DNA of 64,000 nucleotides, from the NCBI GenBank assembly GCA_008632985.1, contig QPGO01000039.1:62001-126000 (forward strand). The letters are read 5' to 3'. Shown here piece after piece: positions 701 through 41,833 of the stretch. Origin of the DNA: Psammoneis japonica. Its lineage: Eukaryota. Both the position numbers and the translations under genes were made by a program. Position 1 is the first letter of the stretch. The number at the start of each line of letters is the position of its first letter. The notes beneath the pieces were generated by a model. That model did no database searches and had not been told where the DNA came from. It worked only from the letters and a program-made list of their open reading frames with translations.

Positions 701-959
701 AAGTTAACGGTCGTGACTTAATTTTTCAAATTTCAAATGATGTAAACTAACTACGACATGCCGAGTAATTTGTATTAATATTTAAAACATTAATTCATGT
801 GTGTTCGATGAAAAATTCGCACCAAGAAGGATGAGGGAAAAAAAGAAAAATCACATGATGTACCCTATGTCACTTTCTTCCTATCGTGCACTTGCATGCG
901 CCGCATTCCTTATCCTGTCATTCTGAGAAGCAAAGGAACGAGTCATCTGTATCTTTGTC

Positions 960-1442: not shown

Positions 1443-1494
1443 AGAAATCAACAAGTATCTACACACTACTTAAAATCTAATCTATGTGCTATAG

Positions 1495-2104: not shown

Positions 2105-2403
2105 CGGATCGAAACGCGGTTCAAACATTGCTCAGCCTTTTCTTCGACTCAAAGCTAATCGAAGGTGTACTGTATCGCACCGCATTCGCAAGCCCTTTTT
2201 TTGTTTTTCAGATTCAAGGTCATCCTCCATGATCACTGTAATAGACAATAAAGGTTTCTTCTAAATTATTCGCCTTTGTTTTACACCTATTGGAACATCA
2301 TATCGTTGATTTCGGTAGAGTTGCGCTCTCCCAAACAAGGAACAATGCAGAAAGTAACTGCAAGGACAGAGTGATGCATTCCATAAACATGAAATCTCCG
2401 CCA

Positions 2404-2494
2404 CTAGCTGGTGCCACATTGTCAGGAAGAAATCATAATAGCTATAATGGCAAATTCAATGATTTTCTTCCGTCATTCAGTAGGGACCAACCAA
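2404..2494 (-). promoter_or_regulatory. Eukaryotic SECIS element in the SPS2 3' UTR
   Basis: Minus-strand RNA: helix I UUGGUUGGU/ACCAGCUAG; core AUGAC (2476-2472) and UGAC (2424-2421); helix II GGAAGAAAAUCAU/AUGAUUUCUUCC; apical region with unpaired AA; about 65 nt after the stop. Confidence 0.88.
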
Positions 2495-2558
2495 CGTGTA
2501 TCTTTCAGCACGCTTTCAAGTTGAAAAAGCTTCTCTTCCTAGACACAAATTCCAATTT

Positions 2559-3695
2559 CTACACCTCTAGCACCTTCAAGTCGTCAGTTAAACACGCCTT
2601 TCGTTCGGGATTGTTAACGACCCTTCCAATAATCCAAGCAGGACTATCATCCAATTCTTGCAGCTTGCTACAAAAGGCCTCTGCAGTATCTTCAGGCATG
2701 CAAATTAGCAAACCACCCGAGGTCTCGGCGGAATACCCAGACACGAGTCGAAAGTTAAACACTTGGTCATTGACTTGTGGAGTCTTGGCAATGCACGGTA
2801 AGGTGTGAATCTCGATACCCACGTCCGCCACTTGATTCTCGGCAAGATTCTGAGCGTGACCCAGAATTCCAAACCCCGTGACATCGGTCGCCGCGTTGGC
2901 ACCGTAGTGTCGCATGAGACGGCCACCGTTGCGATTCAAACGAGCCATGCTGCACACCGCCTCGTGTATCATATTGTCCGCGTCCTCCTCTGTCAAAATG
3001 TCGAGACACTGCTTCCACTTTTTGTTGTTTTCACGTCGCCACTGGTAGACATTGACGGCAATTTGCGTTCCCAATGGCTTGGTCAAGACCAATACATCTC
3101 CGACTTTGGCACCATCCGATGGTACATACTCGTCTTTTGCAACCACTGAAGTTGCAACTCCACCTATAATTGGCCAGGGATTCAATACAGTCTGCCCACC
3201 CGTAACCGCCGTTTCTGCTTCAGAGCACGCGTCTCGAAATCCTCGGACCATTTCGGTTGTGCAAATGTTTCGTTCTTGTTCCGGCATTTCGTTCGACGCG
3301 GCCAAGAGCATGAGCACAAAATCACAAGTATCCACACCTTCGGCATACAAATCGGATAAGACATTGGCCGCACCAATCCGTCCCTGAAGATAGGGCGAAT
3401 GGACGAGTGGAAAGAAAAAGTCCGTGGTGGAAATCACATAATGTCCCTGTCGCGTTTCTCGAACGCTACAATCCAACGCAATGTGTCCGTCTCTTGTATG
3501 GAGATTGGACCCGTCCCCCAGATTTAATTCGGCAAGCATCAATTGCAAATCATCCTGGGGGATCTTACAGGCTCATCCCTTGAGCTTGCTCCAATCCGTG
3601 AGAGACCAATCGGCGGGGAGACCAATCGATGTGGGATCAAAATGAACCGTATCTGCCTTTGTAGGCTTGAATGGAGTAATTGTAGTAGTACTCAT
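2559..3695 (-). CDS. SPS2: Selenophosphate synthetase, Sec-containing (378 aa, Sec at codon 41)
   Basis: ATG at 3695 reads MSTTT...WSKLKG-TGA(3575-3573)-ACKIPQ in frame with ORF 2559-3548; motifs TTDFFFP, GRIGAANVLSDLYA, GGQTVLNPW, TDVTGFGILGH, SAETSGGLL. Confidence 0.95.
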
Positions 3696-4356
3696 AAGAT
3701 GTACTTTAACGCGTGTGGTAAAAGAGGACTGTTGCGTTGGGTAAATCGTCTCGATGGGGAATGCTGCAATTTGTTACGATGAGCTTCTGCAATGAGCACG
3801 ACCGCTTCCACCGTTACGTTTTGCGTCTTGCATGCGTGGCGCCTTGGATACTGTGATGATGAAAGAAAACATGCGTCACATTTTTTGGCGGGCAACGGAC
3901 AAACGTTCGTAGCGGTTATTTATTATTTCGGACGAAATCGCCTTCGGTCAAATGACCTAAAAGACTTTTTAGAAAATGTCCGATCCAAAGGTCATCACCG
4001 CCAATTTCACTCCACATTTTCAAAGTTTACTTCGATGTTGAAAGCACCCGAGAGATTTAAGACAAAGAGTCCAACTGCAATCGGAACCTCAACAACGAAC
4101 AATCATGCCGTTCGATGCTCCTGCCTTCATTCACGACAGCAGTCATCTGATCCAAGTTTTGGAAACGGCGATCAGAACTGCCACAGAAGGAGAAATGTAG
4201 GAGACGATTCATGTCCAACCGGTGTTCGTTACCTTTTCTCATATTTAGTCTAGGATTCATAACATTCAGTGCACTGCAATTGGTCGGGTTCGGCTTCAGC
4301 TGGCGCAGTGCTCTCTTGTCTTAAGAAAACGATGGTCGCATCGCAGCACCGCATCT

Positions 4357-6936
4357 TCAAGGATGTTCCTCGCACCGCACACTATGACCATTTCTTTCAG
4401 GTTCTCTTGCAACAAACTGTACAATCTCAAGAAGTCCATGCAGCTCTTCAAGAGATGCCTTGGCGTCGTTCCACTCCTCCCGGTCGATTTGAAAGCCGGA
4501 GAGCATTCTTGTGTTCAACCGCGTCATTACAGTGGTGTGACTGACGACTCTTGTCGTGAGTTCACTCGGTGGCGATTCTCCATCTACAACAGTGAGAACT
4601 GGCCGGTGTGGCCGGTCGTCAAGGACTTCTGCATCTGAGACCCGTGACACATCCGAAGTAACTTTGATGGAATTCTCATCAAAGGAAACAATCCGGCCTT
4701 CTCGCGTTTTCTTTGGAAGCGGGCAGGTCAACTCAGATGCTTCAGAGACTCTCCCTTTGGGAGTGTCTGGCTGTTCATTGGATAAGGACTGTCGAACTGC
4801 TCTTCGATGATCATCAAGTATCCGGCTTATAATAACTTTCTCCCCTCGCCAGATAAGTCGAAGTTTGGGAAGAACAAGCCGCACAGAGAGAATTGACGCG
4901 ATGTATACAACAACAAAGACCTGCACGATGTACGGAACATCGGGATATGCCGTGGGGTCCTGGGAAACGAGCACCACCGCAATCCCCAGTGACGCAACAA
5001 AAAAGGACGAGACAAGAGCAAAGGACACAGTCTCGGCTTCGTTAAAAAATGCCGGAAGTCGCCGCGATCGTTGCGCCTGCACCAAGGCAAGAAATATCGT
5101 GATGAAAATAACGCCAATGCTTGCCAAACGAAAGAGTTGATCCTCGTTACTCCCGCATTCAAACCGACCGATTGATTCTTCATCGTTCATATGTAGCGTC
5201 AGATTGGGAGTAAATACAGTCAATCCGATAATTTCCAATACAGCAACGGGAAGCGTAAGGAGGACGACCAGTACCCACAAGTGACCAGCCGTAAATTTCT
5301 GACGAAGCTTGGGAGTGCGTATCGGAGACCAGGAAAACCTTCGAGTGCGATGATTCCCCCGATCTATGTCGTTAGACTCTTCACTGTTGCTGCTGGTGCC
5401 ATTCATGTCTCCAGAAGATGATCGAGAAGTCCCTGAAGATTGCCCAATCATAAAAGTGTGCCTCCAAGTTTTCAACCCTGCCCTGACATTGCGTGAATCT
5501 TGAGGACTATCCCAGCTCATCAGTGGTTCCATGACGCGTAGCGTACGAACAAGTCTTCCGACCACAATTGCTAACATTACTTGCAAAGGGATCAGCGTCA
5601 TTGGGCTTTGAAGAAAGCAGTAAGCATCGGATTCTGGGGCGTATAGAAAGCTGCAAACTGTAGCAACAAAGCCCGAAGCCTGCAAAACGATCAAGAAAAC
5701 TCCCTGAGACAACGTCATGACTGCTTCATTTCTATAATGAATTGTAGAGACAATCAATGCAAGCTGGACAGCACCGGCAACGCCCAGCACGAAATAAGAG
5801 AGAATCTTTACCGACGTTTGGACGGAACGAATATCCGGCATTTTGTAGTACGAAACTGCTCTCTGGTGCAAAAGATTTGCAACATCAAATTTGAAGCTAG
5901 CATCAGAGTCAATTCCTGCCGCATGCCCATGGATCGTGTCATTTGTGAGGAAGAACTGCATGGTAGCCAGAGGTATATATTCCCCCGGGGTCTCGATTTC
6001 AATGTCCACATCAACATGAAACTCAAACACTGTCTCGTTCACATCCTCAACAGGTATCCGAAATAGTGGAGACCTACGTGTACTTGTCACGACATCATCA
6101 CTAGAGCCGTGCACATCATGGCTATGATGACTTTCGTGCTCTTCATCACTTGCGTTTCCACCTTCATCGCTTTCATGCTCTTTATCGTTCAACAAAGCTC
6201 GACGAAACCTTCCGCTATCATGCGTTTCATCGTGGTCCTCCTCCTCGTGGCCTTCGTGGTCCTCCTCACTGTGCTCTTCTTCGTCGTGACTATCGCGATC
6301 GTGATCTTCATCATGACTATCGTGATCGTGACCTTCGTCGTGCACAGAACCATCAACTTCCTCTCCTTCAAGAAACGGGGAACACAGCCCCGAGACGGGA
6401 CAAAATTTAATTCGCATCCCAACCTCTTTCAGACCATTGGCGGAATGAAAAAATGCATTCTCAGAGAGCTCGTACTGTTTGCGAATTTCTTCGAGGTCAA
6501 TTTTCCCAGTGACATGGAAGGTATAGAGACGATGAGTCCTCATTCTGAAGCTTCCAGCGACTTGCTCCCGAAGAATGTCTGCGTGAATCTCAGTCCCGTT
6601 GGGGCAGGAACTCAGCATGGTTGTTGGTCCAGCCACGAACTCGGGAAGGAGTTGAGAATTCCAATTCTTTCCAGAAAAAGTTTCAATAATGAATTCTTGT
6701 TCCTCTTCGTGTTCGTGGTGTTCTTCCTCATGGTGTTCTTCCTCGTGTTCTTCGACCGCGCTGTGATTGTGATACGAAGGCGCTGACCAGCAAATGGCGT
6801 CAGATCCGTCGATATTGTCATAGCCTGATTCTGTGTATATCATACCCGGAATGCGAGCCTGTACTTGCACCACCACACCGGTAAGAGATCCCACAACGAG
6901 CAGCCAAACCAGGATCTTGCGGGATAATATCGTCAT
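4357..6936 (-). CDS. Class C (7tm_3-like) GPCR with His/Glu/Asp-rich ectodomain, 859 aa
   Basis: Signal peptide, seven hydrophobic segments, LPAFFNEA motif typical of class C receptors, Cys before TM3 and in ECL2; single open frame. Confidence 0.8.
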   Translation of the reverse strand: MTILSRKILVWLLVVGSLTGVVVQVQARIPGMIYTESGYDNIDGSDAICWSAPSYHNHSAVEEHEEEHHEEEHHEHEEEQEFIIETFSGKNWNSQLLPEFVAGPTTMLSSCPNGTEIHADILREQVAGSFRMRTHRLYTFHVTGKIDLEEIRKQYELSENAFFHSANGLKEVGMRIKFCPVSGLCSPFLEGEEVDGSVHDEGHDHDSHDEDHDRDSHDEEEHSEEDHEGHEEEDHDETHDSGRFRRALLNDKEHESDEGGNASDEEHESHHSHDVHGSSDDVVTSTRRSPLFRIPVEDVNETVFEFHVDVDIEIETPGEYIPLATMQFFLTNDTIHGHAAGIDSDASFKFDVANLLHQRAVSYYKMPDIRSVQTSVKILSYFVLGVAGAVQLALIVSTIHYRNEAVMTLSQGVFLIVLQASGFVATVCSFLYAPESDAYCFLQSPMTLIPLQVMLAIVVGRLVRTLRVMEPLMSWDSPQDSRNVRAGLKTWRHTFMIGQSSGTSRSSSGDMNGTSSNSEESNDIDRGNHRTRRFSWSPIRTPKLRQKFTAGHLWVLVVLLTLPVAVLEIIGLTVFTPNLTLHMNDEESIGRFECGSNEDQLFRLASIGVIFITIFLALVQAQRSRRLPAFFNEAETVSFALVSSFFVASLGIAVVLVSQDPTAYPDVPYIVQVFVVVYIASILSVRLVLPKLRLIWRGEKVIISRILDDHRRAVRQSLSNEQPDTPKGRVSEASELTCPLPKKTREGRIVSFDENSIKVTSDVSRVSDAEVLDDRPHRPVLTVVDGESPPSELTTRVVSHTTVMTRLNTRMLSGFQIDREEWNDAKASLEELHGLLEIVQFVAREPERNGHSVRCEEHP

Positions 6937-8299
6937 CCTCCGTAATTTATTATTTGCAAGAATGATTCAGCGGTTTTATCTCAGGCGGCCAAACGACACC
7001 AGATTGATAGTTTAGTGTGCAACCTATATGCGCTACTGGTAAAACTATACTCTAGTAGAGTTGCGTCGTTGGCATCCATCAATAATGTGTTCAATATAAT
7101 GTTGTGGAAATTGGAAATGATGTGGAATGTGGACCGGCGTGTCTGTTGCCTGCTGCCTGCTGCCTGCTGCGGCTCACCGCTCACCGCGCCGTGCGGCACT
7201 TTTTTTTTTTTTTTTGCATGGCTGCCTTGCCTTATCTTCTTTTGTGCGAAGGGTCATTGAGGGGATTTATGAAAAGTCATCATGTGTGTCAGTGAGTGTC
7301 ATAATGTCGAACAAGTGATGTTCACAAAACAGTTGTTGGATCGTGTCAAAAAACAAACGACGTGGCTTGGCAAAGAGACTTTGAAAAAGAGGAGAGCCAT
7401 TAGAAGTGGAGACAACATGAGAGTTCCAGGAAATGCAAGCCAACTCCATGTTCTTCTGGCTGGTGGAGCAAGCTTCTTCTGGCTTCACTCTCTTGTTGAC
7501 AAAGTGGGCGTCACACTGCCAGGCTCCCGCGCTGCCAAAAACAGCCTTTTTTGCCTTTCCAGCTGCTTGGCCTTTTGACCAGCAGCAACAACTGCCATTG
7601 TTGGAGGGGCACCTGGCTTGAGGGGTGCCATGTGTGACCCAGAAATGAAGCCACGTGTGTTTTGAGTCCCTGGCGTGGCTGGCTGAAGAATGTTCTTTGG
7701 AGGGCCCCCCATTGTCGATCTCAAACTTGCCAACTTTTTGTGCTCACTCTTTGGAGTGAATCATCTGGTTCACCAAGAACAACAAGTGGTGTCCATTGAC
7801 ACCCAACAATCTGTTTGGCATGCGCACGATGTTTGGCGTGAAGGCAAAACACAGCAGGTGCAGAGACCAGGGCAAGTGTGGCGAGCAACACAAAAAGCTC
7901 AACAGGGCTTGCTTTTGGTGACATGGACTTGCCATTTTAATGTTCACTTCAAAAAGTCATTTGCACTTGTTGAGTGGTGCACGCCAGCTTGTCAGAAGAT
8001 CATGAAATCATCGACACCTGCACTGTGAGTGGCAGAAGATGCGGGAGGCAACAAGGGAAATGCCGTGACCAGCACGAGGGTTGTGGTGGAAGAGGTGACA
8101 AAAGCCATGCCAAGAGCAAGAAATCCTTCCAACATGAGATGAAATTTCATCCTTCAACCGTGAACAACAATGCACGCAATGCGACACACAAAGACGTCAA
8201 CAGGAGGATCTGCAGATGCACACAAAAGGAACTTGAACAGGGCAAATGCATGACAAGGTCCCTGGAGAACATGAAGTGCCTTGACTTTAAGGCCAAAAA

Positions 8300-9250
8300 G
8301 CCTGTGCTGAGACTGCCAGCAACTGCACCCAAACAAGGGTCAGCCACATGCAGTGCTGACATGCAAACCAACAAGGAGCATGAGGACAAGCAGCTGGAAT
8401 GTGAGCACCATGCCGAGTGCCAGGACTGCCGTGCAAAACTGAAAAGCAGTTCAACAAGAACAGATCAAATGCACTTGCCATGATTGTGAATGGCTGCTGC
8501 ATGAACCACATGAGGAACAGGGTCCCAGGTGACCCAAGCTGTGACAGCACTGGAGATGATCCATTCGAGTCATTGAGACTTGTCCATTCTCTGACACTTG
8601 ATCGCCCAGCCAGAGGTTGACATCCATTCCGTGCATCGACAATGTCTCTGAAGAACACACTGCAGGTCTGGCAACAAGAAAATGGGTCCATTGCAGATTT
8701 CCCATCAAGATTCAAGAACCAGCAAGATTCCACCTGAGAGATGGTCTGGGCAATGAGATGCTTGACAGGTTCACTCAGAACACCAAGGAGCACAAGGAAA
8801 GCAGCAGTGCTGGCAAGCAGGCCAAGCTGAAGAAAACAGCATTTGATGCCTGAACAACCCACCTGTTCATTGAGAACAGTGACAACCATTGCTGCAAGAT
8901 GCTGAAGAAGAGCTTTGTGATGTGCTGCAGTTTGAGAAACAGCATGTGCCTGAAGGACCCCGACAGAGCAATGGATGTCATCTTGCTCAATCATGAGTGG
9001 GATGACAAGCAGAAGCAAGTCAACCTGAAGAACCCTGACTGTCAAGATGATGAGAATGGGAGGGACAAGAATGGCAACAAGACCAAGAGCCAAAGCCACA
9101 CCCAGAAGACCAGCACCAAAGGCAAGATGACACACTCCACTGTTGTGGCAAAGAGGACCACAATTTCCCGGATTGTTGCCCTGACACACAGGATCCACAG
9201 CATGCAGAGAAGGGCCCGGCATCTTTGGAAGGTCTCACTGCTGCAGCGTT
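8300..9250 (+). mobile_element. Ty1/copia (CoDi-type) gag remnant with zinc knuckle
   Basis: EMLDRFTQNTKEH...KLKKTAFDA*TTHLFIENSD...AMDVILLNHEWD and HCCGKEDHNFPDC (about 9135-9180); stops and frameshifts. Confidence 0.7.
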
Positions 9251-11039
9251 GTTCAGAGTTGGAAGATTTGCCTGTCATGATGGATGATGAGGTGGACGGA
9301 GCCACAGGTGAGGATGGGGACACTGCTGCAGCAAGGCAGTCAGTGAGAGTTTTGAGGACCGCAGCGAGTTTGTCAGTCACAGAGGGAGAGATGTCAAGAT
9401 TGGGTCTGGCAACGGTGCGCCCGTGGTGGCCGAGGGTGTTGTCCGAGGGGCAGAAGATGCCTTGAAAGAGTGCAGGTCCTTCTCAACACTTTCTGCAGCC
9501 CGTCAGGCAGCCTCAGAGACCATGTGAACCGTCTTGAGACATGTCTCGTGGTCTTGGATGGAGCTGGTGTGCGCTGTCATTTGTGCATCGACACCATCAC
9601 AGCAGGATTTAAGAGTGTTGGCTGGCTGGTCCTGTGTGATGAGTTTTGTTGCATCTGGAGTCTGGAGGTGCGGGGGTGGAGGAGAGGAAACAACATTTTC
9701 ACAATCGTCAAGGATGCCCGTCATGGTGGCAGCCACAGAAAGACCATTCTTGACAGCATTCTCCATGTCAGCTTTCATGGAATCCAGTGCAGCAAGCAGC
9801 AGATCAAGGTCATCCGTGTGTCACTTGATGTCGCCTTCCACCTGATTTTGGAAATCAGTCCTGGCAGAGCTGGCGAGTTCACCAACAGCATGGGCAGATT
9901 CAGATGAAGTGGATTCCAGCAGTTCAACATCAGACGCAGTGACCACAGTGAGGCGTTGTTCTTCAGTCTGAGACACAGTCTTGAGGCACTGGAGAACAGC
10001 AGCCCTGGCACCCTCAACCAGCGCTTCTGCATCAGACAGGTGAGGGCAAGGTGCTTGTCAAGCCATTGCACAAATTGCTTGTCACCAGCTGCCACTGCAG
10101 TGTCAGCAGCATCTCCTGCAAGAGCAACAGCCTCTTGCTTGGTGGCTTGCAGTTGTCTCTCAACAGATGTTTGGAAGGTGTCCATCACTTGTGCAGCAGC
10201 AACACTGGCCACATCAGCATGAGTCTGTTCAATCACAGACCAAAGAGAAGCAAGTTCTTGGTGGAAGGATGCAACAGTGGCCTGCACCTCTGCAAGAGAG
10301 TCACTGTGCTCTTTGTTCAGTGCTGCAGAGTCCAACAACTGTGTTTGAAACTGCCGGATGAGGTCAGCAGGAGAAACCAGAGGTGAGTGTGGCCAGTTGT
10401 GGTCCAGAGGTGGAGGCAAACGAGGCGGAGGAGAGCGCGCCAATGTGCCAGCAGGCAGAGCAGCAACAGTGGGTGGCGTGGGCGGTGGTTGGGGAGATGC
10501 AACGACAGGGGCATCAGCCAAGGGATCGGTGGCAGTGGATGTGCAGATGCCATCACGGACCGCTGCCATGATGGATGTGCCAACTGATGGAGCAGCTGTG
10601 ATGGGTGGGGCAGTGGCATCCGGCGCTGTTGATGGTGACACCACCACTTGAAGAGATGAGATGTGTTCCCACCAAGACATTGCCATCTTGGAGTGGGTGC
10701 TGTTTGCTTGTGCCATCACAATTCAGTGATCGGGGAGCGGTGGCACACATGAGCTGTTGGTGTCAGCACTTTTGTGTGCGAGAGCACACAAGCAGAGATG
10801 ACACCAAGAGCTGCAGCAACAGCAGTGGATGCAAATGACAATGGCACAAGATTTGTCAGCTTGCGGCAGAGATGTTGCAGCCACAAAAATGAGAAAGAGC
10901 ACGTGTGAAACGGTCTCTTTGTCATTGTCAACGAGGTTGTCAAAGAGTGTTTTTTGAGTGTCGTTGGTCGGCAGAGGGGCCCCGCTTGTGCCAAGCACAA
11001 GTGTTGTGCTCACAACCTGACAAAGATCCCAATCTAACA

Positions 11040-12404
11040 AGTGAGAATGACACACAGCCACTGAGACATGTCAAAGCAGGCAAAAAAATGGCCCAGGCCC
11101 AGGGAGGTGTCAAAGATTTTAAATTCACAGGAAAATGTGGAGACAATCTTCATGATGCTGATTGGACTGCGGGAGTGGAACATGAGGACAACAACAATGA
11201 CTGTGATGACAACAATGAAAATGATGACAAAGAAAGCAAAAACAGCAATGGCAAAGACTGCGTGATGAGATGGACTCAGACAATGAATGCAAAGAAGTCA
11301 ATGACATCCCAGCTGGTGTGAAGTTCAGTCCTGACCAGCACAACAAAGAGACAGAGTCCATTGATGAGAATCCCGACTGTCACAAAGGAGATGATCACAA
11401 AGATGTTGATGGCATGCAAGACAAAAACAGGCTGAACAAAGATGTCAAGGGAGCCAAAGAAAGAACAGAGGAAAAAGCCAGAGCCACAACTGGCAGGACC
11501 ACAAGGTCCAGGAAGTCCTTTGCACAAAGGCACAAGAAGCATGAGAAAATGGCACAGTTTGCAGGAGTGGCTGGTGCTGAAGAAGAGCAAGAAGAGATTG
11601 CTGAAATCAAGCACTGCCATCACTTGCAAACAATGCAGGTCAAAACCAAGAGCATGACATTGAATGCAGTTCTGAATTGGTGATGGCACTGGTGCAGTTT
11701 GTGTGCAAAACAAATGACAGATTCCATTCAACTGGAAAGGGCATTTTGTTTGCCCAACAGTGCCCACCACACAAAGGCCTAAAAGCAGTTGGACAGAAGG
11801 GGCACAATGCCTCCAAGAAGGAGACAGGACAACTCCACAACAGGGTGTGCTTTGCACCAACATCTGTCAAAGACAAGACTCCAAGTGAGAGGGCAAAAAC
11901 CATTTTCCTTGTGGAGAAATGAGATGGTCAGATTGAAGGATGAATGGTGTGCAACAGGAAACTGACCAGAGAGTGGCTGGACAAAGATGAGTCAGCCACC
12001 AGTCCAGTGGCATCATCAGAAGGAATGTTCATGACTGCCATTGTTGATGCTGAGAAAGGATGCAACATCACAAGTGCTGACACACCCAGTGCATTCATTC
12101 AAACTCAGGCTCCAAAAGTTGAGGAAGGAAAGGATTGGATCATGATGAAGATTGCAGGAGCACCAGTTGACATGCTCATCAGCATCAATCCCAACCTTTG
12201 TGGACCATGCATGGTCCTGGAAAAGGGCAAAAGAGTCCTTTGCTCACAAGTGGTTGGAGCAACATGTGGGGCATGTTGGTTGCAGTGCCACTGTGGTGCA
12301 AGCAGCTCTGCAAGAACTTGGAAAAGATTGGGTTTGTGTCAAACCCATGTGACCCATGCATTGCCAATTGTGCTGTCAATGGCAATCAGCACACAGTCAG
12401 ATGA
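11040..12404 (+). mobile_element. Ty1/copia (CoDi-type) pol remnant (post-integrase linker and reverse transcriptase)
   Basis: LHDADWTAGVE; FLVEK*DGQIEG*MVCN; SPVASSEGMFMTAIVDA; ADTPSAFIQ; GMLVAVPLWCK; GFVSNPCDPCIAN...QHTVR. Confidence 0.9.
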
Positions 12405-13929
12405 CTGGCTGGGACAGCACTGGTTGAAGCCTCAGACAGGTGTTGTGCATCCCTCTTCTGCAGAGATCAATTGCCAGAAACTGAAAAGGCAACAGACACA
12501 GAGAGACACTGTGGGCTGCATCCAGCTGGTGGTTGAAGAAACAGAAGATGAGAATGCAATCATTCATCTGATGTGGCAAGAATTAAAGAGCACACTTTGA
12601 CCAAAATGGGTTGAACCACACAAAAGAAGATTTGAATTTGTGGAGGACCTGCACATGTGCAAAGTCACGGGTTGGTCTCCAGAGATTGATGAACACATGT
12701 CTGCCACCACACCAATGATTTCTGCACATGACAACTTTGAAGATCTTGAAGAAGACATTGAGAACAAAGTCAGGTCCTTGCACCTGACTGAGGAATGTTG
12801 GCAGATCATTGGAGGCAATGCCTGCAGGCAATGAGTCCCATTCTGTGCCAGATGGGGAGCATCGCACAATTTCAATGAGGCATTTGATGAAACAACAGGG
12901 GCGGGCTCAGGGGGTGACAACTTGCAGTTGGCCCTGGGTTGTCCCACCTGCAGCATGGGCATGCAAGGGAGTTGCAGCCCCTCAATGAAAAAGAATCATC
13001 AACGAACCTGATGGGATCTGAGGCTGCAGTGGGCTCATTTTCACCACAACATTGAGGTTGCGAAGCTGGGTTTGATGTGCACATGCCACAGAATGGAGTT
13101 CTTAGAAATGTGCAAACACAGAGAGACTCAGCAGTTGGGCTGAACAACCACTTGTTGGTCTGTCAGACAACATCATGAAATGGATTTTTTTTGTGCCTGT
13201 GTCAGGCATTTTGTGGAAGCTGTGGAAAGGTGCACCCACAAGTTTCATCACATGGTCAATTTCTCAGACAAATGACCTTTCTTCAACATGGCAACCAAGA
13301 TGTCAAAAACATTGATGGGACAAATGGTGTCCCAGAAGAGGAAATTGTCAAGTTCCTTGTCCCAAATCATTGGAACACTGGCAACAGCAGCAGGAGTGTG
13401 TGTCAGAGCATCTGGCTCTGTGGGCACCATGTGTGACCCAGAAACAAAGTTGCATTTTTTGAGTCCTGAAATAACATGGTGAGTTGATGACTGTTCTTTG
13501 GAGGATCTTCTCAATTGTTGATTGTGATCTCACCAACTTTTCATGCTCACTTTTTGGAGCGAATCTTCTGGTTTGTCAAGAATGACAAGGGGCATCCGTT
13601 GAAGCCCAACAATCTGTTTGGCCCAGGTGCAATGTTTGACATCAAGGCAAACCATGGCTGACACAGCAACCAGGACAAGTGCAATGAGTGGCACAGGAAG
13701 CTTGCAATGACCCTTTTGGCAACATTGACTTGCCAGCGCTCAACAGCCACATTGCAACAGCACAGAGACAGCATGTCAACGCTGCCTCAGCACACACCCA
13801 AAAAGCCCATCTGTTGCTGGATGGATGCACAGCCATGTGGGAGAGATCCTGTTTGAAGATGCACCTGAGCTCCTTGGCAAGTTCATCATGCTGTGACATG
13901 CTGTGTTGATGCCAACTTGTTTGTTTGCA

Positions 13930-14400
13930 TGCTCTCAGCGGGGGGAATCCATTGCAGGCATCCCCTCTCTTTCTCAACAAGCTCCCAGCTGCCTGATTCT
14001 CCAACAAAAGAAAAACCATCAAGACCAGCTCTCCACAATTTGTGAATCTGAGTTTGTTGCTGCAAGGGCTTGCATGGAGGAACAGATTGTGGACCTGCAT
14101 GCCATGCTGCATCACCTTGGCATCCTGACCTGTGATGCCAGCTGTGTGCTTGGTCATGACAACAAGTCAGCCATGGATGGCATCACCACCCTGCACTCTC
14201 CAAGCTGCGCAAGTGCCACACACTGCCCTCCAGTTCCACCATGCTCACAGGCATTTGCCTCTGGCATTCTTGGGCTCTGCTTTGTTGAAGGCTCCCACAA
14301 CTTTGCCAACATTCTCAGCAAACATTGGGGTTGCTCTTAGATCTGGAGCCTCTTCCATCCCCTCATGTTCTGGAGCTCTGACTCTAAAACCTTTTGTCTG
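13930..14400 (+). mobile_element. Ty1/copia RNase H remnant
   Basis: ESEFVAARACMEEQIVDLHAMLHHLG...DNKS...NFANILSKHWGCS matches copia RNase H (SEFVAAR...LRYLG...DNKS...NPADILSKHWGY). Confidence 0.85.
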
Positions 14401-15479
14401 TCTGATGTCAATGTGGCTCCTTCCAGCAAAATGGAAAGTGACAGGATTCGAGCAGGATTTTGGTTGGGTGTGATTGTTCATGTGCGCTGCATGCATCCAG
14501 GGTTTTGCAAAAACATGTTTGTGTGCTGCGGCAGTTTTGTCACACTTTCACACATTCCAGTTTGGCTCTTGGGCTGCACAGCTCAGTCTGCCAGCAGCCC
14601 CTGCAACAATTTTCACACAGAAACCCATCTTCCATCTGACAGCAGCAAGCAAGGCATTGTTGTTGTTGTTTTCACACCCAGCTCTCCTCTTCAACTCCTG
14701 TCATCACAAGCCAGCAGTTTTTTTTTTTCTTGGAAAGTGGATTGGGTGTGCATTTTGTCTGGTTTGCAAAACATTTTTTGAAACAGACCAACTGCTTCAA
14801 CAATGATGAACAAACAGAGCTGCTGCCTGTCTTCTGTGCACATTTTGTGGGGGGGGGAGATGCCTGGTGCAAAAACAGCAAAAGGAGTGAGGTCACAGGA
14901 CCAGTGCACTCACCACCTCAGTTGTGGACTGGCAAGCACTGCAATGTGTCAAAGAAGATGACAAAGAAGCTTCCCAACTGCAATGGTGTGAGCCCCACCC
15001 ATCAATCTGAGCTGTCTTGAGAGGGTCAGCAGACAACAAAGAGTGATGTGAAATTTTCATTTTTTTCTCAAATCAGTGGGTTCTTTGACAAAAATCTAAG
15101 ATTTTTTGTTGAAGTTTCACACAGAACAAGTCTCTTTGACTTGCTTGTCACATGTGTCAGCCTGGTTGACAAAAAAGCATCTCCTGGATGACCCCTGCAG
15201 TGTGGGAGAAAAGTGTGCAAACCAGCTGGGCTTGAAATGCCAGCGTGTCACAGGCTCAAGTTCAAGAAACAGGCTGGCATGTCGCCTCAACGGAAAAATC
15301 TTTAACATCCATGACTTAGGACAATTTTATGTGTGCTGATTTGCAACCTTTTTCGCGAACATTTGGTCCGTCATCTGTCCATCAGAATGTGGATTTTCGT
15401 GACCCTTCAGGCCTTTTTCACCGTGACACAGCACGGCACATTTTTTGTGCCGTCACGCCGTCGCGATTTTGAGCACAAT

Positions 15480-15573
15480 GGAAGGTGGGGCATCGGTTGC
15501 CGACGATTGCATTGGTCCCTTTCGACACTCTAAAGGCTCGAATGTGTCATCGGCGACCGATGCCCCACCTTCC
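15480..15573. repeat. 27-bp inverted repeat with 40-nt spacer
   Basis: ggaaggtggggcatcggttgccgacga (15480-15506) vs tcatcggcgaccgatgccccaccttcc (15547-15573); both mismatches are CpG/TpG. Confidence 0.85.
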
Positions 15574-17323
15574 TTCATCATGAAAATGCCGTCTCTTTTT
15601 TGCCATGGCCGCACCACGCAAGCGTTGAGCGATCTTGCGAGCGATGACAAGGTGCGCACATCTCTGCATGATTCAGTGCTCGTCACTTGAATTTCCATTT
15701 TTCTCACACCAACATCATCAACCGTCATCGTCGTTTGTGCAGCCATGGCATCCAGCAAGAAAAAGAGCAGCGACACAGGAAAGAAAAAAAGTTGTTGTCC
15801 CATTGAAAAGAGAGTTGACAATGCTCTCATTCTTTTGACAGCACACGTCTTGGTGAGCTTTGATGGGAAATGGCCAAATGCAGGAGACATTCACCGTGTG
15901 CTCCAGGTTGGTGGCATTCCAGGCAGAACAGCCCAAGTGACACACCGGATTCAATCCAGAAGGGATTTGGATCCAAAGGCTTGGTTTCATTTCGCAGAAT
16001 GTCCAACGACAATGAAAGGCACAGCCATTCAGCAAAATTTGAATCTGATCCCGATGCTCCCAAATCTCAAGCCCACACTCAAATTGAATCATTCAGGATT
16101 GACTTGTCGGCATGCTGTGTGGTTTGTGTGATTCCCTTGTTGCATCTGTTGATGCTCACATTGCACAATCTGCCGTGAAGTCATGCAACAGAATGGAACA
16201 ATCTATTTTATGGCAACAGCGATTGCAGCGGTGTCAATTTTTTCAACTGCCATTGCAGTTGGCGACATTGCATCTAGAGTTGCAATTTGCAATGTCATCA
16301 TGTTCTTTGAAAGCATCCTCTTCTTCAGACGACTCAGCTGCTGGCATCCATGCAGTCGTCATGGCAAAGAAACAGCTCTCGCTTTTTCTTCAGTGTTGGA
16401 GGGAGAAAAAAAATCTAAGATTGCACGTAATTTCAACACTGAAACACACGTAGAACAGACAGCAAAAAGACGTGCAGGCCAACCCACATTCGCAAAATGG
16501 GGCTCACGTGGCGGCCCTTCATGCCAGCCTGTTTCTTTTGCTTGAGCCTGTGGCGTGTTGCTCATCCGAGGAAGACCAAGTTTTGTGGCATGCTGATGCT
16601 GTTGTTGTTTTAAAATGGCTGTCATCCATGGCATCCCCACATGTGTGTGCCCTTGCCTGCCACACATGCTTGTCTTTTGTGCCTGTGCCCCGCTGATGCT
16701 GCAAGCTCTGAGGGACACAGAATTTTTTCAGGCGAGGAGAGAGAGAGTCGTGAAGTCACAGAAGCAAGTGCCAAGCTGCACTTGAGAACTTGGCATGTTG
16801 TCAGAGCACTCAGCAAGCAAAAGGTGCTGCACATGCTTTGGCAATGCACAGCCCTGAGACACCCTGCTGGGGCACCTGGTGGAGTGAGAAGCTTTCTGCT
16901 GTTTTTTGACGAGGCAAGATCATCAACAAGAAGTGCACAGGCAGCCGGGGAGAACCAATTTTAGTGATTGGTGTGTGGCCAATTGCAAACATCTGATTTC
17001 CACCCCAAATTTTGCCTCTGCTAGCTAGAAGACTTTGCATCAGTGTAGTTGGTGTGGGCAGCAGCATTTCGTTGAAAGAGTTTGTGGTTACACGTGGAGG
17101 TGCCAGATAGATGGCAAAGGACGCACGGTCAAGCAAGATTCATTCGAAAGATTCTTCCACGAGATTCACGGGAAGATTCGCCACACCACGAGCAAAAATT
17201 TTGATCGGTGGATACTGGCCTGGACTGGACACCACATGTTTGTTGTTGGTTGGACGCTGTGCACTGAAGAGGCACGTAGCACAAATCTTGTGTTCGACCC
17301 AATTGACAATACGAAGCCCAATC

Positions 17324-17707
17324 ATGCGTCCGTTCGAAGCAGCAGCTTGCAACGAACTCGGTTGCACCTATGCCGAGGCCAAGGAGATGATCAAAGAGGC
17401 CATGGAATCTCTTGGAATCGACAAAGTTGAAGGCCACGAGGAAGAACTCGTTCCCAAGATCGAAGAGCTGTGGGAGCAGCGCAAACCTTCTGATGAAGAA
17501 CTCGCAGCCCGTAAGAACACTCACACGCCGGAAGAAAAAGCGGCCCTGGAGGCGCAGTTGGCCCACGCCAGGGAGAAGAAGGGAGCGGGAGACCGTCTCG
17601 GGGGTATGTTCATGACGGCTGGTGTCTCTCCTTGGTTTGTCAAGGAACGTAGCCCAATTGCGGATACAGCCAATAGGACTTTTAATAAGAACAAGGAAGA
17701 GAGCTAA
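17324..17707 (+). CDS. Hypothetical charged helical protein (127 aa)
   Basis: ATG ORF MRPFEAAACNELG... with coding-like codon usage, in an uneroded island. Confidence 0.6.
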   Translation: MRPFEAAACNELGCTYAEAKEMIKEAMESLGIDKVEGHEEELVPKIEELWEQRKPSDEELAARKNTHTPEEKAALEAQLAHAREKKGAGDRLGGMFMTAGVSPWFVKERSPIADTANRTFNKNKEES

Positions 17708-18609
17708 GTCTTTAAAGAGACTCCACGAGTGGGACTTGCAACGTTCGGTTCAAATGAAAAGAAGTTATCCATGTCTCAAGTTGCTTTGAAGTAAAATTAC
17801 TAAGAAACTTGTGATAATGATTATCTTAATCGAATGAAAAGCCAGTAAATCTACGCAGCTATGTAGGGCTTGTGTGTCACAAAGGTTTGTTTCGACGTAC
17901 CTTGTCGTCCTTTATTCACAGCGAATCCGGTCATCAGTGATCTGCAAAATTGCGGATGCAGATTTCTCCACTTTCTAGAGCTTGCTCTGAGTTCCGTATT
18001 CTCACTATACCGCGGTATCATCAGGTTGTTTGTGCAATATTCTGCCTCATGTCTTTTTTTCTCGGATTGGTGTTGCAAGTCGCAAAGATCATTGATTTCT
18101 CATTTCGGAATCAACTTCAAAAATCGATACGAACCAGAACATGAAATGTGTTCAATCTCCTCCTCAAAGAACAATGGCATTGCTAAACTGACAATCTGGT
18201 ACATACAACGAAGGCATCCCGATCCGGGTTCGGAACTCAGGTGCCCATTGTCACTTTGTCGGCGCCAACAACGACTTTGATCACATCTTTAATCGATCCA
18301 GTCTGAAGTCTGTTTTCCCGGTCTAATCTTCAGTCTGATACCCACAGTGATGTAGTTGATTGGAGTACTCGACGGATGCGCTTCGTAGCACTGATGCAGT
18401 GAGTGCCCGTTTCGCCGACAAAATGGAGACATTTAACGAGGAACCTATGGATATGCACGCAGACAAGAGCGAAACCGCGGGTATATTACTATGTGCAAAG
18501 GATGGGCTCATCAATCAATGGAAAACCATCCTTGGTATTTACTTCATCTACACTATACCCTCCCGTTGCTGAAGCTCCATCAAGATACCGTGTGGAAGGA
18601 GACATCTCA

Positions 18610-19488
18610 CTAGCTATTGCGGTCTCTTGCTCTGTTGCGGCGCATGCACCGATTAACGAGACGAGTTTTCGGTTTGTACTGATTGCAGTCTTCACGTCCA
18701 CCATCCTGGACACAAGTCCATTTCGCCACTTTAAAGATCCATCGTTTATCTCCTTTTGCCGTGACAAACAAACCGTTGGGAGCGTTGGATGGTTTGATCC
18801 TCCTAATCTTCTTCTTTGGGTCTTGGTCAGGAAAAGAGAGAGAGTAGCGCTTGCCTTCTTCAGTTCCAGCATCATACGGAAGAGTTGTGATCACGAACTC
18901 GTAGTACCAGTTTCCAGTCGTTTTGTTGATAGGTATAACATCGTGAAAGCCTGAGAACCAATCAGGAGAGGGAGCAATCATGGAAATGGACGAGATGCGA
19001 TTGTATGTGGAATTCATGCTCAAGAGGCTGCTGGCATCCCAAACGTCTCCTCGTACGTTGCGGAGCACTTCATACTCCAAGACACCCTCGTCGTTTTCCA
19101 ACTCCTGTTTCAATGTCGATGTTCCTCCAGTCTGAGAAAAAAATAGCGTCAGTCTTAGCTTCGATGGAATGCGTGGTGATCCCAGCTTTCAAGGCGCCAC
19201 ACGTACCTCTGCGACCAGTTCAATTCCAGGCGTCGCCAGAGCTCCTGTATTCCACATGGAATATTCGGCGCTATGGGATGTAATGACCGGTGGACTCCAG
19301 TGTGCGGATAGCACAGGATACTCTTTGGGGTGGCGCTTTTTTGTCCACAATCCTAGAAAGCCACATTGGTACTGAACGGCTTCATCGCTCGGTGTCAATC
19401 CATCCGTAGACTCGTGGACGGGAGTCGGCTTCCCAGCAGCAGCCACGGCCACAAAAAGGAAACCAACAGTGAAACGAATCATTGGCAT
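18610..19488 (-). CDS. Secreted Spondin_N domain protein, 2 exons (19488-19207, 19131-18610)
   Basis: Signal peptide; W...HPKEYP..AHWSP, ATPGIELVAE|TG, SMIAPSPDWFSG, YDAGTE motifs; 75-nt GT-AG intron 19206-19132. Confidence 0.9.
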
Positions 19489-19720
19489 TGCACACGGACG
19501 ATTTATGTGAGAAGAAAACGAGAAGTTGCTATCACAACATCATTTATCTTCTTCCTTTTTATCACACAAGTCACGATATCTGTTTGGCTCGTGACCTCGA
19601 GTGAGAGGTGATGAGATCGCCCGAGCAATGTTGAAAAATGTCCTACTGTGTCTTGAGGTACTACCATGATGTGTTGATCTTTAACTTCAATGTTCTTTTA
19701 TAATAGAAACAGGGATAGCA

Positions 19721-19810
19721 AATTGAAATTATATAAGTGAAAGTCATAGACAATAAGTGTTTTGAAACATTTAACAAGGAATGAATTCAAAATGACGTTC
19801 TCGTTCTCGT
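19721..19810 (+). repeat. Dispersed ~100-bp motif, copy 1 (uneroded)
   Basis: aattgaaattatataagtgaaagtcat...gtgttttgaaacattt...gaattcaaaatgac...gttctc; homologs at 26661, 33096, 34400. Confidence 0.7.
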
Positions 19811-19981
19811 TTTATTTTTGCTGTCACAAAACAAAAAACGCACCCGAACTCCGAACAGGTAGCCTCTTATCTTTCAAAAGCTCTACTCTCTAGACGACAC
19901 GTTATTATTTATCTTGTTGACAATAAGCACTTCTTTCGAATCATTCCGTTGTCCAGAAGACTAACCACACAAACGATTATC

Positions 19982-21652
19982 ATGACACGTTCGATCACAA
20001 CATGTTCCGTCTTGCGGGGCTTGTTCATTTTGATGGTATGTGATTTTGCGAGTGCTGAGAGTGGCATTGTCATTGCCGAGGACATCGAGAACACCATTGA
20101 AAAAAACACTTTGGCTTCCAAGCGTAGCGGCCGTTCCGATTTCCCTGACCTTGCAGGTGCATCTACTCCACCACCTCCGGACCGTCGCCTCGCAGGATCC
20201 GCTATTGGTGAATGGGTTCAAATGGGAAATACAGTTTCGACGCGGAAACGCAGAAGGTTTGAAATGATGGCCTTGTGTAGAAATGGTAATAGGATGGTCG
20301 CTTCTGAGACGCTTGACGGACCCATCACAGCATATCAGTGGAACACCTTGAAGTCTCAATGGAAACGTATGGGTCAAAGTATTCCCGGAATAGCTTATAG
20401 CTCTCAGGTAGCCATGTCGAACTACGGAAACTACTTGGTGACTGCTGCAAGACAGGAAACTGCTCGTGTGTTCAAGTGGGAAAATAGAATGTGGAAACAA
20501 GTTGGAAAGAGCATCGACATGTGGGTTGGCACAGGTTTCGATCGTAGGTTTTTCGGCGAACTCGCAATGTCGGATGATGGCAAAACCATCGCGATTGCAC
20601 TCTACGTTTTCCGCACAGTTCGTGGCGAAGTTAAAATCTTCCACTGGAATGGATCCAAATGGATCGAGGAAGCTCATCTATTCGAAAGCCGAGACTTGCT
20701 AGGAGTCTTTGGACGGTTTGGAGCAAGTATAGCAATGTCCGGTAATGGAAAGGTATTGGCGGTGGGGTCTCCGATTGCTCTTGCTCACAATTCCAAAAAA
20801 CCAGTGGGTAAGGCCCAAGTGTTTGAGAAGCAGGGGTCTTCCTGGAAACAAAGAGGTAGCGACATCTTCGGAAAAGGAAAAGACTATGGATTTGGTACAT
20901 CAATTGCCATGTCTAGAGATGGAAGACGCATTGTCATCGGCGAAGCTACCCATTTGTCAAATGGATATGCTCGCGTCATGGAGTGGGACGTTTCCACGGA
21001 CGATTGGATAATGGTAGGAAACGACATTGAAGGAGAGTATAAAGCAGATTTTGGAGAAAAGGTGTCCATGTCGAGTGACGGCCGACGGGTAGTTGTGTCT
21101 GCCTTTGATTTCAGAGATCAGGTCAAGCCTGACAGAGGGTTTTCTCGGGTGTTTGAGTTCAACGGAGACTCATGGCCACAGCTGGGCAATGCGCTACCCG
21201 AAGGTGGACTAGGGCTGTCCATGGCGGGCAGCGGAAATCGTCTTGCCATATTTGAAAGCACCGACATTCGAGTTTACAACTACGTCGACCTGGCTGCTGA
21301 TGCTCGTGTTGTCGAGATTAAAATCAAACCCTTCAAAGGGAACAATGCTGGGATCAAGATTTCAAGGTCTCGCAAAGAGGAAGTTATAAGCGTCGGAATA
21401 CGTACAACCGACGATTTTGATGCCAAAAAGGTCAATGTGACTTCCATCAGGTTTGGTCCGGACCAAGCAAAGCCCGTTGGTTCACTAAAGAAGGACTTTG
21501 ATTTCGATGGCATCAAAGACATGATTCTCCGATTTAAGTTGCACCACACAGGGTTTAGCCCCGGCCGTCAGCAAGCCTGTCTCTTTGGGGAGCACAAATC
21601 TGGGGAGGAGATAAAGGGGTGCCAATTTGTTCAAGTCACCAAGGCCAAGTAG
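19982..21652 (+). CDS. Secreted beta-propeller (FG-GAP-like repeats) with prokaryote-like C-terminal domain
   Basis: Signal peptide, RRL motif, repeats such as FGASIAMSGNGKVLAVG and WKQRGSDIFG; tail VEIKIKP...FDA..V....IRFGP...DFDFDGIKDMILRF; no intron needed. Confidence 0.85.
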   Translation: MTRSITTCSVLRGLFILMVCDFASAESGIVIAEDIENTIEKNTLASKRSGRSDFPDLAGASTPPPPDRRLAGSAIGEWVQMGNTVSTRKRRRFEMMALCRNGNRMVASETLDGPITAYQWNTLKSQWKRMGQSIPGIAYSSQVAMSNYGNYLVTAARQETARVFKWENRMWKQVGKSIDMWVGTGFDRRFFGELAMSDDGKTIAIALYVFRTVRGEVKIFHWNGSKWIEEAHLFESRDLLGVFGRFGASIAMSGNGKVLAVGSPIALAHNSKKPVGKAQVFEKQGSSWKQRGSDIFGKGKDYGFGTSIAMSRDGRRIVIGEATHLSNGYARVMEWDVSTDDWIMVGNDIEGEYKADFGEKVSMSSDGRRVVVSAFDFRDQVKPDRGFSRVFEFNGDSWPQLGNALPEGGLGLSMAGSGNRLAIFESTDIRVYNYVDLAADARVVEIKIKPFKGNNAGIKISRSRKEEVISVGIRTTDDFDAKKVNVTSIRFGPDQAKPVGSLKKDFDFDGIKDMILRFKLHHTGFSPGRQQACLFGEHKSGEEIKGCQFVQVTKAK

Positions 21653-41829: not shown

Positions 41830-41833
41830 CAGA

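Follow-up and report, generated by a model that had tools for sequence, protein, structure and literature searches.

Introduction

The closest described system to the one dealt with here is the TpA hypermutation of the chlorarachniophyte Bigelowiella natans. In mutation-accumulation lines of this organism, 231 of the 302 nuclear substitutions fell in giant-virus and virophage regions (Mettrop et al., 10.64898/2026.01.13.699255). These inserts mutate at approximately 1000 times the background rate, and 230 of the 231 changes were A to G or T to C, all of them at the dinucleotide TpA (10.64898/2026.01.13.699255). The hypermutation was restricted to some of the lines, and reverse transcriptase and DDE domains are over-represented among the TpA-poor coding sequences of B. 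natans (10.64898/2026.01.13.699255). As for the enzyme, the authors propose, by argument, an ADAT2-like adenine deaminase, activity on DNA having been reported for the ADAT2 of amphioxus and trypanosomes (10.64898/2026.01.13.699255). In this work, we describe a footprint of this kind in a 64,000-nucleotide (64 kb) stretch of the genome of the diatom Psammoneis japonica (assembly GCA_008632985.1, contig QPGO01000039.1, positions 62,001 to 126,000 of the forward strand; hereafter, the window), whose repeat blocks, one of them containing what is probably a Ty1/copia-type retrotransposon, have lost nearly all of their TpA.

On diatoms, CpG and trinucleotide context, the main text of the B. natans preprint is silent (10.64898/2026.01.13.699255). 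Cytosine methylation of diatom transposons is documented (PMC9998398), and no description of TpA hypermutation in diatoms was found in a literature search which included passages of PMC6604790, PMC2806351 and 10.1101/2025.10.24.684338 and did not cover subscription journals. A first-pass annotation of the window had proposed a mutational process acting on silenced repeats and had known of no description of it; in this last respect, it has been overtaken by the 2026 preprint (10.64898/2026.01.13.699255).

Results

Extent and Composition of the TpA-Depleted Blocks

Between positions 7260 and 15300, the first-pass annotation had counted by eye about 15 TpA where hundreds would be expected. The exact number is 15 in 8041 bases (b), compared with 512 predicted from base composition; in 1000 shuffles the minimum was 448 TpA, and the genic density of the window would predict about 329. 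The observed/expected (o/e) ratios of the same interval are 0.20 for CpG, 1.83 for TG and 1.82 for CA. In the individual kilobases from 8 to 15 kb, TpA o/e ranges from 0.00 to 0.05; genic kilobases have values of about 0.5-0.7, with CpG at about 1.0, which agrees with the earlier remark that genes have normal TpA. Actually, the depletion covers about half of the window, as had also been claimed: a 300-b sliding scan of TpA o/e delimits ten TpA-depleted blocks that sum to 35.8 of the 64 kb (Table 1) and whose TpA o/e lies, in each case, within 0.045-0.095.

When the blocks are pooled and compared with the rest of the window, TA amounts to 4.6 versus 40.9 per 1000 dinucleotides and CG to 18.2 versus 52.8. 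The joint gain of TG and CA in the blocks (72.4 per 1000) matches the joint deficit of TA and CG (70.9, made up of 36.3 and 34.6, respectively). The gain is thus twice the CpG loss, and the remainder equals the TpA loss; hence, the deamination of 5-methylcytosine (5mC) is insufficient as an explanation, and a roughly ninefold fall in TpA together with a rise in CpA and TpG is also distinct from fungal repeat-induced point mutation (RIP), two points on which the first-pass annotation had been right. The dinucleotides AA, TT, AC, GT, CC and GA shift by no more than 3.5 per 1000 in the blocks, and AT is also little altered.

Across the six frames of 7260-15300, there are 422 TGA stops versus 27 TAA or TAG. 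Since so few TAA and TAG stops are left, long meaningless open reading frames (ORFs) are common in this interval. ORFs of 150-315 aa occur on both of its strands, and none of them codes for anything recognizable.

A Probable Copia-Type Element, Decayed, in the Main Block

The main block contains a decayed reverse transcriptase (RT), on which the reading of the direction of change depends. The RT was recognized through its relatives: (i) a full HMMER search with its ORF 11944-12597 retrieved 602 relatives, 104 of them at E ≤ 1e-10; (ii) in a tblastn search with 23 intact relatives, all 40 high-scoring segment pairs fell on 11605-12441 of the plus strand (best E 4.7e-51); and (iii) in a scan of 11 long relatives for the family RVT_2, seven reached the gathering score, three remained just below it and one had no match. 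The ORF itself has no Pfam match even at E ≤ 10, and a word-indexed protein search with it returned 0 matches. The RT region is bracketed by two direct repeats with 70-71% identity, 5.8 kb apart, a spacing like that of long terminal repeats (LTRs), and contigs from other copies connect approximately position 7760 to approximately position 13650. Taken by transitive homology, the element at about 7.6-13.7 kb is probably a Ty1/copia LTR retrotransposon of RVT_2 ancestry. Pfam, tblastn and comparison with relatives revealed no integrase, gag or RNase H for it.

The first-pass annotation had spoken of an intact CoDi consensus; what the relatives do show is a copia-type (RVT_2) ancestry, and the host is a diatom. 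The same annotation had read the ORF at 13897-14337 as the RNase H end of the element, with the changes LRYLG to LHHLG and KHWGY to KHWGC, a reading that finds no support, as this ORF has no similarity to eight long relatives (z from -0.9 to 0.6).

Direction and Specificity of the Change

For the analysis of direction, ORF 11944-12597 was aligned with its best 150 relatives, which comprise 104 intact (at least 2% Tyr), 26 Tyr-poor (<0.5%) and 20 intermediate proteins; consensus-Tyr columns were those with Tyr in at least 60% of the intact relatives, within the first 112 residues. At all four consensus-Tyr columns, the RT of the window has Cys (codons TGC, TGC, TGT and TGT). One of the three consensus-Arg columns is kept and the other two read TGC and TGG, while 35 of the 56 other conserved columns are kept. 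Several of the replacements listed in the first-pass annotation can be recovered. MVYN to MVCN and NPYDPC to NPCDPC are directly visible in the tblastn alignments (MVYNGKPTREW versus MVCNRKLTREW, and NPYDPCVAN versus NPCDPCIAN); LWYK to LWCK has only an approximate match in them; and, for LYGPY to LCGPC, the first Tyr is borne out (at this column, 91% of 101 intact relatives have Tyr, and the window has Cys). The change ALYG to ALCR, read at 42327-42461 in a second RT fragment (42270-42461), is limited to weak tblastn alignments (E 0.015-0.75), in the same register in 11 relatives.

The Tyr-poor relatives allow the same comparison on a larger number of sites. In their 98 consensus-Tyr cells there are 0 Tyr, 49 Cys and 36 His (i.e., 85 of 98 are Cys or His). 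The commonest other changes in these proteins are Val to Ala (39), Leu to Ser (19), Leu to Pro (9) and Ile to Thr (9), which fit the codons GTA, TTA, CTA and ATA with TA changed to CA. On the other hand, they retain Phe at 24 of 25 positions, Gln at 26 of 26, Asn at 32 of 39 and Lys at 49 of 65, so the change of A to G is not general, being limited to the TpA context. Changes of Asp to Asn, Glu to Lys, Ala to Val, and Arg to Gln, Cys or His are also present in them and are consistent with CpG decay.

The Tyr-poor relatives (P0121, P0125, P0149, P0153, P0158, P0164, P0167, P0187 and 18 others) have raised Cys and His. Three of them come from distinct source collections (ena, jgi and lgn), so the same footprint is present in other public assemblies. 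A search with the alignment of the Tyr-poor proteins mostly returned intact relatives, only one of the 116 new proteins being Tyr-poor. One of the RT relatives comes from the diatom Grammatophora oceanica.

At 53 metagenome loci with intact relatives, retrieved with two search patterns of which one contains Tyr and thus favours unmutated copies, TpA o/e is 0.44-0.84 and none of 1809 500-b windows falls below 0.15; by comparison, 64 of the 128 500-b windows of the present 64 kb have a TpA o/e <0.2. Judging from these relatives, the copia lineage is not natively TA-free, and the direction of change is TA to TG or CA.

Strands and Timing

Both strands are affected, as the first-pass annotation had held: in the main block the TG:CA count is 1075:1128, and in the Tyr-poor relatives the Cys and His replacements (49:36) even occur together in single proteins. 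The order of TG and CA along the blocks has no extra clustering, with runs-test z values from -2.2 to +1.4 (from -2.1 to +1.0 in genes).

The time of action can be read from duplicated DNA. The direct repeats that bracket the RT region differ at 92 of 322 aligned sites, and 34 of these differences form 17 doublets with TG in one repeat and CA in the other, whereas column shuffles lead to the expectation of 1.8 doublets, with a maximum of 7 in 1000. Such doublets imply that the same ancestral pyrimidine-purine step was changed in opposite ways in each repeat after copying. Nine further differences oppose CG or TA to TG or CA. Likewise, in the tandem duplication at 28468-29180, the differences at CpG or TpA steps comprise nine CG versus CA, three TA versus CA, and two doublets, so both processes (TpA loss and CpG loss) acted there after duplication. 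The mutation, then, acts on resident DNA, after insertion or duplication, and on both strands about equally.

Two further observations concern these duplications. In 28468-29180, the single-step changes have a 12:0 strand asymmetry: none is of the type CG versus TG or TA versus TG, derived states occur in both copies, and the changes correspond to C to T and A to G on one (the bottom) strand. Such a pattern would be expected from a pair of hydrolytic deaminations of a single exposed strand; twelve events are too few to make this more than a hint. In turn, the copies of the duplication at 37888-38869 (approximately 490 b, 90% identity) differ by 16 transversions, 16 other transitions and a single TG/CA doublet; from these ordinary differences it follows that this duplication was copied once TA had already been erased, which provides a relative time order.

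Flanking Bases of the Surviving TpA

The blocks retain 163 TpA, of which 94 lie in the context YTAR and eight in RTAY (Y, pyrimidine; R, purine); in the rest of the window, the corresponding numbers are 187 and 347 out of 1152. Relative to normal DNA, survival is 0.44 for TTAA and 0.46 for CTAA/TTAG, versus 0.01-0.03 for ATAT, ATAC/GTAT and GTAC. In other words, TA followed by a pyrimidine (RTAY) has been removed far more completely than YTAR. The mixed classes are reproduced within approximately 1.5-fold by an additive model in which each strand has a single rate that depends on the base following A (high for T and C, lower for G, lowest for A), the worst being CTAC/GTAG (0.05 observed versus 0.08 predicted). 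The supply of substrates does not explain the surviving TpA, because TTAC and TTAT, the words expected from the commonest TG words (TTGC and TTGT), are rare. On the product side, the gain of TGY is about twice that of TGR, a difference which, given an assumed gene-like starting composition, is suggestive. TpA being its own reverse complement, the flank rule has two equivalent notations, T-A*-Y and R-T*-A, where the asterisk marks the base that is changed.

Relation to CpG Loss

In 52 of the 128 500-b windows, both TpA and CpG are depleted (CpG o/e <0.4). Twelve TA-depleted windows keep a CpG o/e of at least 0.4, and five of them of at least 0.7 (those starting at 15501, 24501, 28501, 29001 and 55501); no window of the 128 combines CpG <0.4 with TpA ≥0.4. 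The reverse combination is found elsewhere: two of the metagenome loci, L040 and L033, have CpG o/e of 0.08 and 0.22 with TpA of 0.55 and 0.60. TpA loss without CpG loss here, and CpG loss without TpA loss there, indicate that TpA loss is a separate process. It is near saturation and separable from CpG decay, which, in this genome, exceeds it neither in speed nor in breadth.

Seven of the metagenome loci with related copia elements (L040, L033, L036, L041, L042, L045 and L051) have CpG at 0.08-0.41 and normal TpA at 0.55-0.72. The organisms to which these loci belong thus undergo methylation-type decay without the TpA process.

Read Support and Copy Number

Reads were available from one sample, in three 2019 runs whose library type is not on record; no RNA sample was listed for the stretch. 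Contigs of one run (X1) were assembled from exact 31-letter words and cover 95% of the sampled words. One of them, 1561 b long and with a depth of 60.8, matches 13714-15275 with 0 differing letters; genic contigs have depths of 36-62, so that the TA-free sequence is present there at the depth of a single copy. Common modified bases are not misread in polymerase-based reads. Since such reads render common modified bases correctly, and since noisy long reads would not yield exact-word contigs, it is unlikely that the TA-free sequence is an assembly quirk or a read artefact, although the sample may be the one behind the assembly and is not an independent one.

The repeat status was established by depth for positions 1-20000. 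In the bins of 7338-16675, the contigs sum to a depth of 101-1813, whereas the preceding bins have 36-94 and the following ones 60-112, so the block at 7-17 kb is multi-copy in the genome. The segment 15576-15801, within the repeat that has the most copies (its summed depth reaches 1813), is TA-poor yet CpG-rich. In a contig of a second run (X2), 39 letters with three TpA stand in place of 15611-15760; the genome may contain copies of this family that are different or have been mutated less.

Borders, Neighboring Genes and Other Features

At the 100-b scale the TA borders are sharp, and the depletion ignores the boundaries between coding and non-coding DNA. Around the main block, single-copy contigs extend up to 7770 on the left and begin at 16482 on the right. 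These single-copy flanks are TA-poor, with four TpA in 7098-7770 and two in 16482-17022 (genic density would give about 27 and 22, respectively). The TA-poor zone, therefore, extends approximately 0.5 kb beyond the multi-copy portion of the main block. At 54651-56250, in turn, the TA-free zone enters an intact F-box/WD40 ORF (55666-56538, plus strand) by about 450 b, and the 941-b stretch entirely without TpA (54778-55719) abuts this ORF. Both cases may represent leakage of the TpA process into unique DNA; alternatively, the TA-poor flanks may be old unique relics.

The F-box/WD40 ORF has three TpA in its first 450 b or so, no Tyr in its first 200 residues or so, and normal CpG. In the case of a 7tm_3 receptor-like gene (4357-6936, minus strand), only about 160 b separate the start codon from the TA-free zone, so its promoter abuts the mutated block. 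As for the selenophosphate synthetase gene at 2562-3539, its best named matches are from Entomoneis, Cylindrotheca, Seminavis, Nitzschia and other diatoms, with identities of at most 76%, which identifies the host as a diatom and not Bigelowiella. Finally, a 0.75-kb island (41026-41775; TpA o/e about 0.7, CpG 0.84, 39.5% G+C) lies between TA-free blocks, with sharp borders and without any Pfam, Rfam or tRNA match. Two insertions may have left this piece of the original intergenic DNA between them; otherwise, the island may have arrived later.

The first Pfam pass covered 132 of the 153 ORFs of at least 110 aa in the window (the 21 left out, mostly genic, were nearly all overlapped by other ORFs). 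In this pass, no transposon family was matched inside any TA-depleted block, the only matches inside the blocks being a sub-threshold RING finger (29520-30329) and the F-box/WD40 ORF; a second pass, in which 10 ORFs of the repeat blocks were scanned at E ≤ 10, brought no relevant match. Scans of the window for Rfam families, tRNAs and tandem repeats gave nothing relevant apart from the 357-b duplication, and the self-comparison of the window yielded only five DNA matches, too few for a polarized mutation spectrum. The features are collected in Table 1.

Table 1. Position of the TpA-depleted blocks and of the repeats and coding remnants within the window
Feature	Position	Strand	Remarks
TpA-depleted block, truncated by the start of the window	1-450		TpA o/e 0.09
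Main TpA-depleted repeat block	7101-17025		29 TpA in 9925 b, o/e 0.045; CpG o/e 0.28; TG and CA about 1.8
Left direct repeat, probably the 5' LTR of the copia-type element	7609-7934	+	blastn pair with 13408-13735
Decayed Ty1/copia-type RT	11605-12441	+	two in-frame stops and a frame change; contains ORF 11944-12597
Right direct repeat, probably the 3' LTR	13408-13735	+	blastn pair with 7609-7934
ORF earlier read as the copia RNase H end	13897-14337	+	no Pfam match at E ≤ 10
Two adjoining TpA-depleted blocks	24351-31825 and 31851-34400		CpG partly kept at 24.4-24.9 kb and 28.5-30.5 kb
Tandem duplication, 2 x 357 b, 94.7% identity	28468-29180	+	CpG or TpA steps account for 16 of the 19 differing sites
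TpA-depleted block	36551-41025		encloses the tandem duplication 37888-38384 / 38383-38869
TpA-depleted block	41776-44925		includes the second, more decayed RT fragment, 42270-42461 (+)
TpA-depleted block	46651-48875		TpA o/e 0.095
TpA-depleted block, CpG retained	54651-56250		TpA o/e 0.09, CpG o/e 0.80; zero TpA in 54778-55719
TpA-depleted block	58351-60725		TpA o/e 0.066
TpA-depleted block	62276-63850		TpA o/e 0.083

Discussion

Proposed Process

In our opinion, the depleted blocks are likely to be the product of a hypermutation that takes place at the DNA level, converts T:A to C:G at TpA, and is directed at silenced transposon-derived repeats, the host genes being spared. A TpA hit on one strand would become TpG and, if hit on the other strand, CpA. 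It would be of one kind with the TpA-only hypermutation of B. natans, and the targeting could be provided by the silent-chromatin or small-RNA state of the repeats. As regards the chemistry, an ADAT/TadA-like enzyme might deaminate adenine to hypoxanthine, which would be read as G. To our knowledge, TadA and ADAT2-ADAT3, together with the adenine base editors derived from them, are the only well-known polynucleotide adenine deaminases. The natural target of the tRNA adenosine deaminases, A34, is always preceded, as far as is known, by U33, and a U before the target A would explain the TpA rule. Nevertheless, the deaminase step, taken alone, is one that we put forward tentatively, with slightly more doubt than confidence. 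The first-pass annotation had spoken of an adenine-directed process: the context-specific change of TpA to TpG or CpA, on both strands and in the repeat blocks, stands, while the palindromic TpA admits either adenine or thymine as the target.

Several points weigh against the hypermutation proposed here: (i) no de novo mutation was observed, everything having been deduced from the end state; (ii) no deaminase gene was found in the window among the 132 of 153 ORFs searched with Pfam, the enzyme being a guess; (iii) run X1 possibly comes from the very sample behind the assembly and, in that case, is not independent of it; (iv) the Tyr test in the window concerns one element and four columns; (v) the Tyr-poor relatives were chosen for lacking Tyr, so that the absence of Tyr from their 98 cells is partly circular and only the replacement by Cys or His counts as informative; and (vi) the flank estimate presumes that the repeats once had a gene-like tetranucleotide content. 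Besides, mutation accumulation in Phaeodactylum has a GC-to-AT bias, and no TpA effect is reported in the passages matched of that study (PMC6604790); hence, not every diatom need have the TpA process.

Alternative Explanations

A thymine-directed route would achieve the same end result. A dioxygenase of the TET/JBP type, or another modifier, would convert the T of TpA to 5-hydroxymethyluracil (5hmU) or 5-formyluracil, whose mispairing with G would then change T to C. The palindromic TpA and the reading of the flank rule as R-T*-A fit the sequence equally well under this route; moreover, 5-formyluracil does mispair with G, and the 5hmU of dinoflagellates favours TpA. Against it, we know of no 5hmU in diatoms. 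In addition, the sole experimental study of this signature favours adenine deamination, by argument only (10.64898/2026.01.13.699255). We regard the thymine route as improbable, though worth retaining. Much less credit can be given to RNA editing before reverse transcription, i.e., the copying into DNA of retrotransposon RNA hyperedited by an ADAR-like enzyme. The one identified element is a retrotransposon, and enzymes of the ADAR type favour a U before the edited A (10.64898/2026.01.13.699255), both of which suit this possibility; but only sense-strand TA to TG changes would be inherited in this way, and TG and CA are close to 1:1, with Cys and His replacements in single relatives. Furthermore, the direct repeats and a tandem DNA duplication diverged by changes of the TG/CA type after copying, non-coding parts and approximately 0.5 kb of single-copy flank are also depleted, and the targets in B. 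natans are integrated DNA viruses (10.64898/2026.01.13.699255). Strand symmetry by itself largely refutes such editing and, together with the divergence after copying, it excludes the editing of sense RNA before reverse transcription; accordingly, this explanation is very improbable.

A sequencing or basecalling artefact, in which a modified base of silent repeats is misread and TpA is present in the cell, is just as hard to credit. The library type is not on record and the run may come from the source sample, which leaves this possibility some room. Yet contigs built from exact words at a depth of about 60 repeat 1.5 kb of TA-free sequence without mismatch; Tyr-poor relatives with Cys and His substitutions exist in the ena, jgi and lgn collections; and, in the manner of old relics, the copies bear stops, transversions and changes of frame. 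The depletion could, in the last place, be native, either through selection against TA (because of a TA-cutting nuclease or of TA-targeting transposons) or through GC-biased gene conversion. The depletion itself speaks for this, and nothing more does: conserved Tyr residues are replaced instead of recoded and the reading frame is broken, relatives have normal TpA, the depletion disregards the boundaries between coding and non-coding DNA, and, in the case of gene conversion, A and T outside TpA are retained. We consider native composition extremely improbable.

The hypermutation of repeats at TpA, that is, the reading preferred here, can be extended into a wider conjecture, namely, an ancient, chromatin-guided defence based on a DNA adenine deaminase, common to stramenopiles and rhizarians (within the SAR assemblage), which would saturate on diatom transposons, leak approximately 0.5 kb into unique flanks and gene starts, and perhaps drive the loss of CpG too. 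A single-strand deaminase shared with CpG loss is suggested by the one young tandem duplication, at 28468-29180, where all nine CpG and all three TpA changes are on the same strand. In any case, this conjecture is speculative and we think it rather unlikely as a whole.

Implications

If the process is the same as that of B. natans, a mutational defence that is the mirror image of RIP is not confined to one chlorarachniophyte. Such a defence would operate in diatoms, a major group among the primary producers of the sea, and more than half of these 64 kb would have been remodelled by it. It would also mean that nature has a system which, following a tight sequence rule, makes A:T to G:C changes in chromosomal DNA, a matter of interest for the enzymology of base editing. 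The process would explain why old diatom transposons escape homology searches, as reflected in the lack of transposon Pfam matches among the repeat-block ORFs, and possible false gene calls of long ORFs, since essentially only TGA stops remain. Leakage into the 5' end of genes would make it a source of mutation for host genes. In practical terms, sliding-window TpA o/e is a simple screen that can be applied across eukaryotes, and the enzyme could be sought by phylogenetic profiling.

Comparison With Known Systems

Four kinds of known systems, in addition to B. natans, can be compared with the window. RIP is also a mutational defence acting on repeats according to a dinucleotide rule, and its traces are long blocks of odd composition, rather sharply bordered but leaking somewhat into the flanks. 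However, RIP changes C:G to T:A, mostly at CpA, and thereby creates TpA; here, as in a mirror image, TpA is destroyed. The decay of 5mC also feeds TG and CA, and CpG o/e is <0.4 in 52 of the 64 TA-depleted 500-b windows, but it cannot remove TpA. The ADAR and APOBEC3 of animals, which act on retroelements, resemble the present case in that a deaminase with a context bias cripples selfish elements by mutation, ADAR preferring a U before the edited A; nevertheless, they act on RNA or single-stranded cDNA and leave a one-strand signature, whereas here both strands of resident DNA are changed and, besides, APOBEC changes C and not A. With the tRNA deaminases TadA and ADAT, the likeness lies in the U33-A34 substrate, which would give the TpA rule; their action on chromatin-embedded double-stranded DNA, and the targeting of repeats, would have no explanation in what is known of them.

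The likeness to B. natans is much closer. In both cases T:A changes to C:G at TpA and nowhere else, the strand that is hit decides between TpG and CpA as the product, the mutated DNA is foreign or selfish, and the host genes are normal (10.64898/2026.01.13.699255). The differences are the following: (i) in B. natans de novo mutations were measured, while here it is the end state that is seen; (ii) B. natans is a rhizarian, while the present host is a diatom, i.e., a stramenopile; and (iii) the giant-virus and virophage inserts targeted in B. natans keep many TpA (Rho 0.45; 10.64898/2026.01.13.699255), while the retrotransposon-derived repeats of the window are near saturation, with o/e of 0.02-0.09. 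The diatom case would, therefore, belong to the same, just-described kind, to which it adds another major lineage and the most extreme form known so far.

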